From: a virus
Taxonomy: Duplodnaviria; Heunggongvirae; Uroviricota; Caudoviricetes
Direction: 5' to 3' (one strand)
Virus record (IMG/VR): IMGVR_UViG_2645727715_000001
Span: 1 to 4,648 of that record
Length of the DNA: 4,648 nucleotides
Position numbers and translations under genes: made by a program. This document shows, in pieces, positions 304 through 4,648 of this stretch. A model generated the notes under the pieces. It was given only the letters and a program-made list of their open reading frames with translations, did no database searches and had not been told where the DNA came from. The stretch's first letter is position 1; every line of letters begins with the position of its first letter.

Positions 304-479
304 TGCGTGTGGCATGTATTGGCTTGTTACCGTACCCGACTCGTTTTTGGGCTTCTGCGCTAATTGCAAAGCCACAGGTCCTGATGGCTGACAACATCAC
401 CCCAGCACCAAAGCGCCGCCATACCGGTATTGCAGCGGCACGACGAGCAGCAAAGAGACGCAGGAGAGCAAAGCGATGA
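303..479 (+). CDS. Possible small ORF (58 aa, GTG start) with hydrophobic N-terminus and strongly Arg/Lys-rich C-terminus (AARRAAKRRRRAKR); below the 60-aa cut-off of the ORF track
   Basis: GTG at 303 overlaps the upstream stop (taGTG) and lies 6 nt after GGAGG (292-296); frame 3 is open to TGA 477-479, which overlaps the ATG of the next gene (ATGA). It fills an otherwise unusual 172-nt gap in a coupled operon. Alternative ATG at 384. Confidence 0.3.
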   Translation: MRVACIGLLPYPTRFWASALIAKPQVLMADNITPAPKRRHTGIAAARRAAKRRRRAKR

Positions 480-664
480 AAAACCGTAAAGCAAAGATTC
501 TGTTAGTTCGTAGAAACGCTCCTGGCGTCTGGCAGTGGGTGAGACTCAGCAACCGACGGATGGGGTTAATGAAACATTACGGGATGATGGATTGTTGGTT
601 TTGCAAAAAGCCCAGCGCGGCGCAAAACCGCTGGAAAAACCACTTGCGCACTAAAGGAGAGTGA
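476..664 (+). CDS. Small very basic protein, 62 aa (16 Lys/Arg vs 2 Asp/Glu); possible nucleic-acid-binding protein, function unknown
   Basis: ATG 476 preceded by AGGAG (462-466) at 9-nt spacing; stop TGA 662-664 followed 1 nt later by ATG 666 of the next gene. Confidence 0.55.
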   Translation: MKNRKAKILLVRRNAPGVWQWVRLSNRRMGLMKHYGMMDCWFCKKPSAAQNRWKNHLRTKGE

Positions 665-670
665 TATGGC
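653..670 (+). repeat. 18-bp gene-junction repeat AAAGGAGAGTGATATGGC, copy 1 (stop of ORF 476-664, RBS and start of ORF 666-1181)
   Basis: Exact identity with 1553-1570, read directly from sequence; both upstream proteins end in KGE. Confidence 0.9.
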
Positions 671-1181
671 GTTAACACACCGCGAACTCTGTCAGATTGC
701 GTACAAGTTCCTTAAGCGCAACGGGTTCAAGGTTTGTTTTCATGACCGCTTTATAGCTGTAACCAGTACCGGAGAACAGCCAGATGCTATGGGATTCAGA
801 AATTCAGCATCATGCCTGATAGAGGCGAAATGTTCTCGTGCTGACTTGTTGGCAGATAGAAAAAAGCGTTTTCGTAAAAATCCGTCTCTTGGAATGGGCG
901 ACTGGCGATTCTTTATTAGTGAGCCGGGAATTATTTCAATTGAGGATTTACCACCTGGCTGGGGATTACTTCACGTTGTTAACGGAAGAGTACGGAAAGT
1001 ACATGGGTGGCCCAAGGGTAATTGCTGTTGGGGTAATCCTGACGATAAGCCATTTACTGGAAATAAGCAGGTTGAATGCGATTACATGTTATCTGCATTA
1101 AGGCGTATGGAGTTGAGAGGGCACCTTAATGAAATATATGACGGTGTAATTGTTAATAAGAAAGAAGGAAACGCGGCATGA
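666..1181 (+). CDS. Putative PD-(D/E)xK-fold nuclease-like protein, 171 aa, with Cys/Trp-rich C-terminal region (GNCCWGNPDD...ECDY)
   Basis: ATG 666 with AGGAG 6 nt upstream. N-terminal region shows E7, P39-D40 followed by hydrophobic residues, then hydrophobic-IEAK (E53-x-K55) followed by a basic helix (RADLLADRKKRFRK), the classic spacing of a PD-(D/E)xK core. Stop overlaps next start (ATGA at 1178-1181). Fold assignment is motif-based only. Confidence 0.7.
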   Translation: MALTHRELCQIAYKFLKRNGFKVCFHDRFIAVTSTGEQPDAMGFRNSASCLIEAKCSRADLLADRKKRFRKNPSLGMGDWRFFISEPGIISIEDLPPGWGLLHVVNGRVRKVHGWPKGNCCWGNPDDKPFTGNKQVECDYMLSALRRMELRGHLNEIYDGVIVNKKEGNAA

Positions 1182-1564
1182 TCACTATTACCAAAGAGCG
1201 ACTGCTGACAATCAAGCAGTGGCGCGAAACATACGGACCTGGTAGCAACGTTGTACTGCCAGCAGAAGAAGCGGAAGAACTGGCACGGATTGCGCTGGCA
1301 TCGCTGGAAGCAAAACCAATAGGTGCTTTCCACATTGCAGAACAGCAGGTCGATGGCACAAGTGACTACATCAAGGATGGGGAGTGGCCTATTGATAATG
1401 GAATTATTGAGGTCTACGCCGCTCCACCCGTTCCAGTAGTACCGGAAGAAAAACCAATGCCTAATCCTCTTAGCATGTACGCGGTTGATGCTGTTGCCGC
1501 TATTGCAGAGGTGAGAGGCTGGAACGCCTGCCGCGCTGCAATGCTTCAGGGAAAAGGAGAGTGA
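1178..1564 (+). CDS. Hypothetical phage protein, 128 aa; paralog of the N-terminal half of the downstream 315-aa protein
   Basis: ATG 1178 overlapping upstream stop; GAAGGA 1164-1169 as RBS. Shares MxTITxE start, ELARI(A/V)LASLEA(K/E)P and (V/L)Y(A/T)(A/T)PP(V/A)P motifs with ORF 1772-2719, including a 34/35-nt identical DNA stretch. Confidence 0.75.
   Translation: MITITKERLLTIKQWRETYGPGSNVVLPAEEAEELARIALASLEAKPIGAFHIAEQQVDGTSDYIKDGEWPIDNGIIEVYAAPPVPVVPEEKPMPNPLSMYAVDAVAAIAEVRGWNACRAAMLQGKGE
1277..1311 (+). repeat. 35-bp in-frame repeat, copy 1 (GAACTGGCACGGATTGCGCTGGCATCGCTGGAAGC)
   Basis: 34/35 identity with 1937-1971; encodes ELARIALASLEA. Confidence 0.9.
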
Positions 1565-1570
1565 TATGGC
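1553..1570 (+). repeat. 18-bp gene-junction repeat AAAGGAGAGTGATATGGC, copy 2 (stop of ORF 1178-1564, RBS and start of ORF 1566-1775)
   Basis: Exact identity with 653-670. Confidence 0.9.
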
Positions 1571-1775
1571 TATTGCCGCAAGTTACACAATGCATCTCTA
1601 TTGTGACTGCCGCCAGTGTACGGAAGGTGTATATCCAGTGCCAGACTTCGGTGAGTATATAGGTACGTCATGGGCTGGCTGTGCAAAAGAGGCGCGCAAG
1701 GATGGCTGGCGAATAAAGCAAAGACAAACGCGTGCTTTTGCGCCTGGGCATAAAGTTTTGAGGATTAACAAATGA
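1566..1775 (+). CDS. Small Cys-rich protein, 69 aa (C13-x-C15-x2-C18 ... C39); possible zinc-ribbon-like protein
   Basis: ATG 1566 preceded by the same AAAGGAGAGTGAT junction as gene 666-1181; stop TGA 1773-1775 overlaps ATG 1772 of the next gene. Confidence 0.6.
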   Translation: MAIAASYTMHLYCDCRQCTEGVYPVPDFGEYIGTSWAGCAKEARKDGWRIKQRQTRAFAPGHKVLRINK

Positions 1776-3052: not shown

Positions 3053-3268
3053 ATGGGAAAATTAACTTTTGTAGTCGAATTTGAGGATGGCAAAGAGCCA
3101 CCTGTTAGCGCCAATCTTGATGTTGCTGGTGGCAGGCTGGTTTCGGTTCTATTTGGTGATTACCGCGACGACTTCTTTCAGCCTGAAGAAGTTGATGTAG
3201 TGCGAGAAGCATTAAACGAGCTAAGTGTTGATAACGATGATGCTCATGCGGAAATCATCAAAAAATGA
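3053..3268 (+). CDS. Small strongly acidic protein, 71 aa (17 Asp/Glu vs 7 Lys/Arg); candidate DNA-mimic or anti-defence-type protein (hypothesis only)
   Basis: ATG 3053 preceded by GGGGGT; residue composition counted directly from the translation; stop TGA 3266-3268. Confidence 0.65.
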   Translation: MGKLTFVVEFEDGKEPPVSANLDVAGGRLVSVLFGDYRDDFFQPEEVDVVREALNELSVDNDDAHAEIIKK

Positions 3269-3332
3269 ACTGACTACTCACTAAATTATCAATTATGGTG
3301 CTATCACCTACGACACCGAGAGAAAATTTATA

Positions 3333-3455
3333 ATGTCAAAAGTAAATGTTTTGATTTTTTCAGCAATTGTTGGCTTTGGTTTTACTGCCGGAGTGCAGAT
3401 TTATATTACGTGGGAAAAAATCATCAACTACGAATGGAGTTGTTTTATTAAGTGA
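3333..3455 (+). CDS. Candidate small membrane peptide, 40 aa (MSKVNVLIFSAIVGFGFTAGVQIYITWEKIINYEWSCFIK), one hydrophobic helix
   Basis: Frame 3 ATG 3333 to TGA 3453-3455 in the AT-rich segment. Ends 7 nt before ATG 3463, and its 3-prime end contains the GAGGT that would serve as RBS for the next gene. It competes with the TTG-initiated N-terminal extension of tool ORF 3367-3756. Confidence 0.35.
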   Translation: MSKVNVLIFSAIVGFGFTAGVQIYITWEKIINYEWSCFIK

Positions 3456-3462
3456 GGTAAGT

Positions 3463-3756
3463 ATGTGGAGAGGTAATAATCATGGCAAAAGCCAGATGAT
3501 ACTTACCGAATATAAGCTAGACCACAAAACCAATAAATCACGCTCAGTATATTTGCTCCGGCACAATAGCCGCGTAAGAAATACCGTGCTGGAACAAAAT
3601 CTGACAGTTGAAATGGATAATTGCGGGGGATTCAAGCCAACAATTTCGCTTGATGATTTTCCTCGTGGTTTAAGCGAAAGAGAAGCAATGCTGAAATTAG
3701 CAGAATGGCTACAAAGATTAAGCATTGCTATTGAAGATAACTGGTCTGAACCTTAA
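3463..3756 (+). CDS. Hypothetical protein, 97 aa if started at ATG 3463 (tool call 3367-3756 uses an upstream TTG)
   Basis: Frame 1 ORF ending TAA 3754-3756; ATG 3463 has GAGGT (3454-3458) upstream, though at short spacing; alternative in-frame ATG at 3496. Followed by a perfect hairpin-forming palindrome at 3789-3805. Confidence 0.5.
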   Translation: MWRGNNHGKSQMILTEYKLDHKTNKSRSVYLLRHNSRVRNTVLEQNLTVEMDNCGGFKPTISLDDFPRGLSEREAMLKLAEWLQRLSIAIEDNWSEP

Positions 3757-3788
3757 ATTTATATGATGACACTAAAACATTTTCTTGA

Positions 3789-3805
3789 CCGCCCATTATG
3801 GGCGG
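3789..3805. repeat. Perfect 17-bp palindrome CCGCCCA-TTA-TGGGCGG (7-bp GC-rich stem, 3-nt loop); possible RNA hairpin or dimeric-protein binding site
   Basis: Read directly; located 33 nt downstream of stop 3756; a TTGACC hexamer (3785-3790) abuts it. No U-tract follows on either strand. Confidence 0.6.
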
Positions 3806-3990
3806 CAGCCGCAGGCTATGACTTTAATTATATGGATTGCATGTCTTGTACTGCCAATGCATACGACCATTCGTTCATCCTGCTGTTTAATTCTTTAAGA
3901 ATATTGCCGGAAACAGTATTTCTTAGGTGATGGAATGACTGATATTGCCAAAATGAACATTGAAGAATGGACTAAGGAATGTGAAAAGAA

Positions 3991-4146
3991 ATGGCGCAAA
4001 AAGAAATGACCAGAATCACTGAAGAGCGCATATCAGAGATTATTTCCCGTATCGAAATGTATGGTCACGGTGCTGGATATACGGCAGATGAAGTATTGGA
4101 AATAGCCCAGCAGATGCTGGCCTTGAGACAAAAAAGAGCAACATGA
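3991..4146 (+). CDS. Possible short ORF, 51 aa (MAQKEMTRITEERISEIISRIEMYGHGAGYTADEVLEIAQQMLALRQKRAT); may be a fragment of a disrupted gene
   Basis: Frame 1 ATG 3991 to TGA 4144-4146. It is overlapped by a 24-codon ORF (3935-4009, frame 2, good AGGTGA RBS) and followed by a frame 2 ORF, so the region looks frame-broken. Confidence 0.3.
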   Translation: MAQKEMTRITEERISEIISRIEMYGHGAGYTADEVLEIAQQMLALRQKRAT

Positions 4147-4162
4147 AAGCAATACGTGTAGA

Positions 4163-4552
4163 TTGAATTTTGAGCAGTGGCTGGAACAGCAACGCGGGAA
4201 AATCGATGTGGACTGTGGTTGTGTGTCCACTGAAACATTCATGCACTGGCTGCGGGTAGCTTACGAGGCTGGCAACTATCCGGATATTCCGGATAGTTCG
4301 GCGCAAGCACCAGGGAAGGGGGGGCTTCCCCGGAGAGCGGATTCGAATTAAGCCGCATGTTTACCGTGAACTGGTTAACCGCCTCCACGATACAGCGATC
4401 AAGTGTGCTGGCACCCAGCAATTACGGGAAAGAATTAGCCGCGTTTTTGGCGAAGTTATTACACCAGATCGTCATAAACAAGCCGAGAAAAGCGGTCTGG
4501 AAAGGAGTCATCTTGAAGCGGCATTAAACATTAAACCGGGCAGTACGCTAGT
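4163..4552 (+). pseudogene. Frame-disrupted or mis-sequenced gene: frame 2 ORF (4163-4351, TTG start) continues without any start codon in frame 3 from 4260 to the end of reliable sequence
   Basis: Frame 3 is open from 4260 onward but has no ATG/GTG/TTG; the frame 2 to frame 3 switch coincides with a G7 run (4318-4324). Deleting one G would join the two into one ORF (...APGKGGFPGERIRIKPHVYRELVNRLHDTAIKC...). Confidence 0.35.
4276..4296. repeat. 21-bp inverted repeat CTATCCGGA-TAT-TCCGGATAG (9-bp arms); also a direct repeat of TCCGGATA
   Basis: Read directly; lies inside ORF 4163-4351, encoding YPDIPDS. Confidence 0.5.
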
Positions 4553-4648
4553 GGGGAAAAATTTTTCCCCGGGAAAAAAATTTTTGGGGTTTTTAAAAAA
4601 ACCCCAAAAAAAGGGGCCCCCTTTTAAAAAACCCCGGGTTTTAAAAAA
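4553..4648. other. Low-complexity homopolymer-stutter tract (GGGG AAAAA TTTTT CCCC GGG AAAAAAA ...), most likely sequencing or assembly artefact at a contig/read end rather than genomic sequence
   Basis: Every base occurs in runs of 3-7, cycling through all four nucleotides for about 96 bp to the end of the window; nothing like this occurs in the preceding 4.5 kb. Confidence 0.7.

Follow-up and report, generated by a model that had tools for sequence, protein, structure and literature searches.

In the window, meaning the whole 4,648-nt stretch of viral DNA analysed here, small genes on the plus strand are packed closely and run in the same direction. The open reading frame at 666..1181 (+) starts with ATG, includes its stop codon and encodes a 171-aa protein of the MmcB-like PD-(D/E)xK type. 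It was present in the ORF list exactly as the first-pass annotation had described it, and we call it the nuclease gene after its predicted activity. Upstream, across a gap of 1 nt, lies a 62-aa ORF at 476..664 (+), a member of phrog_1380 (unknown function) with a pI of 11.6 and 16 Lys and Arg residues. A Shine-Dalgarno sequence, AAGGAG, was read from the sequence at 654..659 (+), 6 nt 5' of the nuclease ATG. Since it falls within the final codons of the 62-aa ORF, coupling of the two genes is tight or translational. Further upstream, a 58-aa ORF at 303-479 overlaps the start of the 62-aa ORF with its own stop codon (ATGA); it belongs to phrog_13831 (unknown function), has a pI of 12.0 with 15 Lys and Arg residues, and ends in AARRAAKRRRRAKR.

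On the downstream side, the nuclease stop codon shares ATGA (1178-1181) with the ATG of an acidic 128-aa ORF at 1178..1564 (+), found in the ORF list and identified with PHROGs as carrying an EaA/Ea22-type N-terminal module. A 69-aa ORF with four Cys (1566..1775, +; phrog_926, unknown function) begins 385 nt downstream of the nuclease gene. The very basic protein named as one flank is therefore there, but the Cys-rich 69-aa ORF given as the other flank is separated from the nuclease gene by the 128-aa ORF. The cysteines of the 69-aa ORF follow the pattern C13-x-C15-x2-C18...C39, and its product is possibly a small zinc-binding protein.

We found 324 close homologues of the 171-aa protein, and a profile built from close homologues retrieved 3255 cluster representatives at E<=1e-3 (2423 at E<=1e-10) from 1.84 billion searched. 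Compared with the Enterobacter and Citrobacter copies (90-91% amino acid and 77-78% nucleotide identity, dS saturated), 50-54% of third codon positions differ and only 8% of first and second positions. The many homologues and the concentration of differences at third codon positions confirm, at the level of sequence, that 666-1181 is a real gene and more than a chance ORF.

No sigma-70-like site was found on the plus strand across the whole window, and no convincing LexA box was found in it. The one CTGT-N8-ACAG match (one mismatch) lies inside the coding sequence and is no more than expected by chance; the operon promoter lies outside the window. The nuclease gene is thus an internal cistron of a long operon.

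Several repeats mark the window. An exact 18-nt direct repeat, AAAGGAGAGTGATATGGC, occurs at 653-670 and 1553-1570, 900 nt apart, and brackets the nuclease gene together with the 128-aa gene. Both copies represent the same gene junction, with ...KGE and the stop of the upstream ORF, a ribosome-binding site, and ATG-GC of the downstream ORF. The repeat looks like a conserved boundary where cassettes swap by recombination. A 35-nt repeat (1277-1311 and 1937-1971, 97% identical) lies in the N-terminal modules of the 128-aa protein and of a 315-aa (DUF551) protein, whose start regions (1178-1212 and 1772-1806) are also similar. Matches to the P1-like phage MH422554 stop at about position 1312, so the 660-bp segment between the 35-nt repeats, with the 69-aa gene, is present here and absent there. 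This suggests mosaicism through recombination in the shared N-terminal modules of the two proteins. In the 315-aa protein, the DUF551 domain follows a linker, AGNYP(V/D)IPD, whose coding sequence is a 32-nt repeat (2479-2510 and 4267-4298, 91% identical). The linker is found again in the short ORF at 4163-4351, possibly what is left of a DUF551-type gene after truncation.

An AT-rich block at 3150-4050 (36-40% GC against about 50% elsewhere) contains small ORFs, among them a hydrophobic 40-aa ORF (3333-3455) and a 129-aa ORF (3367-3756), and is probably of different origin from the rest of the array. The final ~97 bases (4552-4648) consist of homopolymer runs (GGGGAAAAAATTTTTCCCCGGG...), which are the source of the only strong terminator-like hairpins in the window. 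Matches to phage records end at 4549-4551, and the homopolymer end has the look of an artefact of read ends or assembly rather than of biology.

Distribution and genomic neighbours

Over its full length the window matches P1-like, Stx-converting and other lambdoid phages piecewise at about 96% identity, and the nuclease gene itself is 100% identical to copies on ~97 kb E. coli plasmids of the P1-like phage-plasmid type. The gene is present in 931 of 5426 complete E. coli genomes (about 1 in 6), at 1050 chromosomal and 250 plasmid places, and 533 IMG/VR viral contigs encode a relative. Carriers of the clade include prophages, phage-plasmids and conjugative elements. In Shigella phage Ss-VASD, the gene lies in the early-left array, on one strand, in the order kil-gam-recT-exo-ssb-...-Ea22-like-(nuclease)-DUF551-...-methylases-xis-int, a setting that is the exo-xis/ea region.

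Every database source names the gene 'hypothetical'. It was left unannotated at 6191-6702 of MH422554 (L001), a GenBank P1-like phage. On the RefSeq plasmid NZ_CP021537.1 (L002), the copy at 7001-7516 is labelled a 'frameshifted' pseudogene with only 179 nt covered, and its DNA is 100% identical to the intact gene of the window. Published work on the exo-xis region contained no mention of this protein or of any nuclease, and the literature on MmcB and phage, or on PF06319, held passing mentions only.

The 1-nt gap to the 62-aa ORF and the PHROGs profile phrog_9263, which covers both this protein and the nuclease, would fit a three-gene module with the 62-aa basic and 69-aa Cys-rich proteins, such as a toxin-antitoxin system or a nuclease with its regulator. 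We counted linkage in viral contigs with nuclease genes at least 99% identical (80 contigs for the upstream side, 75 for the downstream side). The 62-aa gene adjoins the nuclease gene in 36/80, the full-length 128-aa gene in only 22/75, and the 69-aa gene lies within 2.5 kb downstream in 5/75. Among complete E. coli genomes, a probe for the junction between the 62-aa and nuclease genes was found in 173, against 910 gene carriers, and a probe for the downstream junction in 493. Over 32 loci, one per species, the 62-aa gene was never within 6 kb of the nuclease gene and the 69-aa gene was so once. Together with the 128-aa gene that intervenes before the 69-aa ORF, these linkage counts largely refute the three-gene module, which we consider essentially excluded.

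In 29 one-per-species loci, the two ORFs closest to the gene on either side are heterogeneous mobile-element genes, among them Ea22, DUF551, N6/N4 and C5 methylases, NinG, RusA, PrtN, RdgC, TraC, Pol III theta and excisionase. The contigs that encode two of the relatives are 1-2 kb long, with unannotated neighbours. Distant homologues lie just downstream of a C5 methylase (L028 4384-5991) or an N6/N4 methylase (L034 5049-5804), a few kb downstream of a C5 methylase (L035 1010-2563), or beside the F-type conjugation gene traC (L025 6480-9086 and L031 3076-5628). The nuclease family is thus not restricted to phages.

These methyltransferases, which in L028 and L034 lie no more than about two genes upstream, could be read together with the restriction-endonuclease fold as one half of a restriction-modification pair. 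Against this, they make up 4 of the 115 neighbour proteins scanned across relatives, with none in the window or beside most relatives, and those seen differ in class (C5, N6/N4). Mixed methyltransferase classes are typical of orphan phage methylases. Moreover, the protein lacks a separate recognition domain, and its closest family is MmcB and no type II enzyme. A restriction-modification role is hardly credible, and the linkage data essentially exclude a partner of this kind. The nuclease gene has no conserved partner gene.

Fold, family and active site

Searched directly, the 171-aa protein gave no Pfam match even at E<=1, which leaves it below the PF06319 gathering threshold (22 bits), and no match in NCBIfam or in a PDB sequence search. 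In PHROGs it falls squarely within phrog_9263 (E 2e-123) and phrog_631 (E 1e-94), both without functional annotation, the former being a composite profile that also spans the unrelated upstream 62-aa protein. A faint match was to phrog_5429, 'DNA repair protein' (E 0.003).

We modelled the protein with AlphaFold2 from 29 homologues (pLDDT 80.1, pTM 0.75). The model runs from a helix (5-18) through strands 23-26, 41-45 and 48-54, a second helix (58-64), strand 80-85 and a hairpin (100-105/108-113) to a helix at 134-150. In the model, these elements supply the alpha-beta-beta-beta-alpha-beta fold of a PD-(D/E)xK core. Foldseek against the PDB returned no significant match; the closest solved structure to the model is 3dnx, with 132 of its 146 residues aligned. 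We verified that 3dnx belongs to PF06319, 'DNA repair protein MmcB-like' (E 2e-32), and Steczkiewicz et al. 2012 also list it as MmcB-like (PMC3424549).

Profile comparisons gave support from sequence that does not depend on the model. Built from close relatives only, a profile reached 3dnx at no better than E 0.36, and a diverse profile of 54 family members, 34-55% identical to the query, was needed to reach it (E 9.6e-5). When this 54-member profile was compared by HHalign with an alignment of 20 MmcB proteins, the match had 97.9% probability and E 5.8e-13 over 124 columns. Among the 54 diverse relatives, 16 show weak PF06319 matches (best E 2.9e-4), and the relative P0259 alone clears the gathering threshold, at 23.1 bits. 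By these profiles the protein is demonstrably homologous to the MmcB family, with the catalytic residues in register, and its large clade, borne by phages and plasmids, is either a distant sister of the MmcB-like family (PF06319/DUF1052) or an outlier inside it. Because the window protein fails the formal Pfam threshold, we treat it as a divergent PF06319 branch rather than a curated member. The domain fusions seen in longer relatives (TniB-like, dATP/dGTP pyrophosphohydrolase, DUF551, Ea22) are inconsistent, look like read-through or gene-calling joins with neighbour genes, and offer no hint of function.

The first-pass annotation had proposed a PD-(D/E)xK core from motifs alone, and the model and the profile matches to MmcB proteins uphold it. 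Its family guesses fared unevenly. The MmcB-like option gained support from the HHalign match and from 3dnx as the closest structure, short of the PF06319 threshold. The Hjc, VRR-NUC and Mrr suggestions received no profile match above threshold and no top structural match, and we conclude that the protein is none of the three.

The catalytic core codons span 744..830 (+), with D27 at 744-746, E37 at 774-776, P39-D40 at 780-785 and E53-A54-K55 at 822-830, and the residues sit on strands beta1-beta3 of the model. The residue positions read earlier (E7, P39-D40, I52-E53-A54-K55, CCW 120-122, ECDY 137-140) were all correct, as was the basic stretch after K55 (S57-R58...R65-K66-K67-R68-F69-R70-K71). 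D40 is kept in 54/54 diverse relatives and E53 and K55 in 53/54 each, so the D/E/K residues, whose lack of conservation had been named as grounds for rejecting the nuclease reading, are conserved in homologues. E37 is also kept in 53/54, R81 in 54/54 and E137 in 53/54.

Position 27 is acidic in 53/54 relatives, against just 41/54 for E7, which the first-pass annotation had placed in the catalytic set. HHalign pairs D27, D40, E53, K55, S57, R58, D60 and D64 with the invariant MmcB residues E29, D39, E53, K55, S57, R58, D60 and D64. Because D27, and not E7, aligns with an invariant MmcB residue and is conserved, the putative catalytic centre is better described as D/E27 + D40 + E53-x-K55 (+E37) than as E7 + D40 + E53-x-K55. 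A signature helix follows the catalytic lysine at 834..875 (+), S57-R58-x-D60-(F/L)61-x-x-D64-x-x-K67-x-x-R70, recognised from conservation in the 54 relatives (D60 in 54/54; D64, K67 and R70 in 53/54 each). The string SRADFxxD is also found in 3dnx and MmcB proteins.

Some PD-(D/E)xK folds have lost activity, and the protein might accordingly be a catalytically inert DNA-binding or regulatory factor that keeps only the nuclease fold. Two papers report that genes of the exo-xis region modulate the lysis-lysogeny decision (PMC3824215, PMC8614690). However, all catalytic residues are kept in 53-54 of the 54 diverse members, which is unexpected of an inactivated fold, and we find an inert protein quite improbable.

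The C-terminal half had been read as a Cys/Trp-rich metal-binding or recognition extension. We found no cysteine conserved across the 54 relatives (C9 is present in 8, C24 in 2, C50 in 5, C56 in 1, C120 in 0, C121 in 3 and C138 in 0). The loop with CCW (residues ~119-130, 1020..1055, +) is variable and is the least confident part of the model, with pLDDT <50 at residues 119-123. A Cys-coordinated metal site was rejected on both counts. With 132/146 residues of 3dnx aligned, the strands and helix of the C-terminal half belong to the MmcB fold. Overall, the nuclease core and the MmcB-like homology of the earlier interpretation stood, and the metal-binding extension and the 69-aa flank fell.

Proposed role

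Taken as a whole, the best explanation is a small MmcB-like endonuclease with a role on damaged or branched DNA for the mobile element, to which we give a probability of roughly 0.55. The fold model and the sequence conservation point to a single-domain, divalent-metal-dependent DNA endonuclease of the PD-(D/E)xK superfamily. Its active site would be formed by D40 (beta2) and E53-x-K55 (beta3), plus D/E27 and E37, and the DNA backbone would be gripped by the conserved basic residues R58, K67, R70, R81, R146 and R147.

The gene moves as a stand-alone cassette in long co-directional early operons, in lambdoid and Stx phages within the exo-xis/ea region and in P1-like phage-plasmids within a variable region. 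Since it sits in the lambdoid early-left operon, its product probably appears early, whether after infection or after induction of the prophage. If the protein behaves as MmcB does in Caulobacter, it may then incise damaged or branched DNA, and by doing so could help the element to copy or recombine its genome when the host's DNA is damaged. Caulobacter MmcB, a PD-(D/E)xK family endonuclease whose gene is under SOS control, gives protection from mitomycin C and cisplatin, a phenotype known for this protein alone, and is believed to work on interstrand crosslinks alongside translesion polymerases (PMC9578287).

We also found homologues of the nuclease in lytic jumbo phages, and these MmcB-like genes favour a general DNA-metabolism role over one tied to induction. 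Mitomycin C and like agents trigger prophage induction. A more specific and speculative idea, with the odds well against it, is that the protein serves mobile-element 'escape repair', as an MmcB-type lesion or crosslink endonuclease of temperate phages, phage-plasmids and conjugative elements, made from an early operon so that the element could replicate out of a host whose DNA those agents had damaged, or else is an unrecognised single-gene exclusion nuclease.

Defence genes are often located in variable regions of mobile elements. The nuclease gene is a stand-alone accessory gene in such regions of prophages, phage-plasmids and conjugative elements, and its catalytic site is intact, both of which would suit a single-gene anti-phage (superinfection-exclusion) nuclease that cuts incoming foreign DNA. 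Yet the protein matched none of 5027 PADLOC models at E<=1, and it is a single domain of ~150 aa without a sensor or DNA-reading domain. In lambdoid phages the gene occupies a mid-operon position among early lytic genes and is not a lysogeny-expressed moron with its own promoter. Its conservation is high and uniform (60-99% identity across Enterobacterales), not diversifying, and the lytic jumbo phage homologues also count against exclusion. We consider this explanation unlikely.

As an MmcB-like endonuclease candidate, the protein brings no new architecture or mechanism; the value of the result is the annotation of a very common E. coli prophage gene. The gene is carried on Stx-converting prophages and P1-like phage-plasmids, unnamed functionally in databases, and is now tied to MmcB-like nucleases. 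P1-like phage-plasmids are often carriers of antibiotic resistance. One component of the poorly understood exo-xis/ea region is thereby filled in. A large branch of the MmcB-like family, borne by phages, escapes the Pfam PF06319 model, and the link of a clade of more than 3000 sequence clusters to that family offers a concrete hypothesis that is cheap to test, namely a candidate metal-dependent endonuclease on damaged or branched DNA.

Comparison with Hjc and MmcB

Archaeal Holliday-junction resolvases are relatives of the MmcB-like family, and weak Hjc matches occur in 36/54 diverse relatives. The protein could on these grounds be a dedicated Hjc-type Holliday-junction resolvase that completes Red/RecET-mediated phage recombination. 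All matches to archaeal Hjc (PF01870) and to AHJR-like nucleases were under the family threshold, and structurally the protein resembles Hjc far less than it does 3dnx. Hjc lacks two features of the phage clade, the SRxDFxxD helix and the C-terminal beta-hairpin with its helix. We consider a dedicated resolvase unlikely. Among known anti-phage defence systems, no PADLOC-DB family was matched.

The closer comparison is with the MmcB-like family (PF06319 / DUF1052 / COG5321), whose solved structure 3dnx is SPO1766 of Ruegeria pomeroyi and whose founding member is Caulobacter crescentus MmcB. Identity between the window protein and MmcB proteins is only ~23-28%, with PF06319 not matched. The phage clade has E-x-P-D before beta2 where MmcB has R-V-D. 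It also has a GMGDWRF motif of its own, and its variable loop ahead of the C-terminal helix is longer. Caulobacter mmcB is SOS-regulated (PMC9578287), whereas the LexA search here covered a window that excludes the operon promoter. Finally, classic MmcB proteins are chromosomal and mostly alphaproteobacterial (PMC3424549), in contrast to the phage clade, which resides on prophages, phage-plasmids and conjugative elements.
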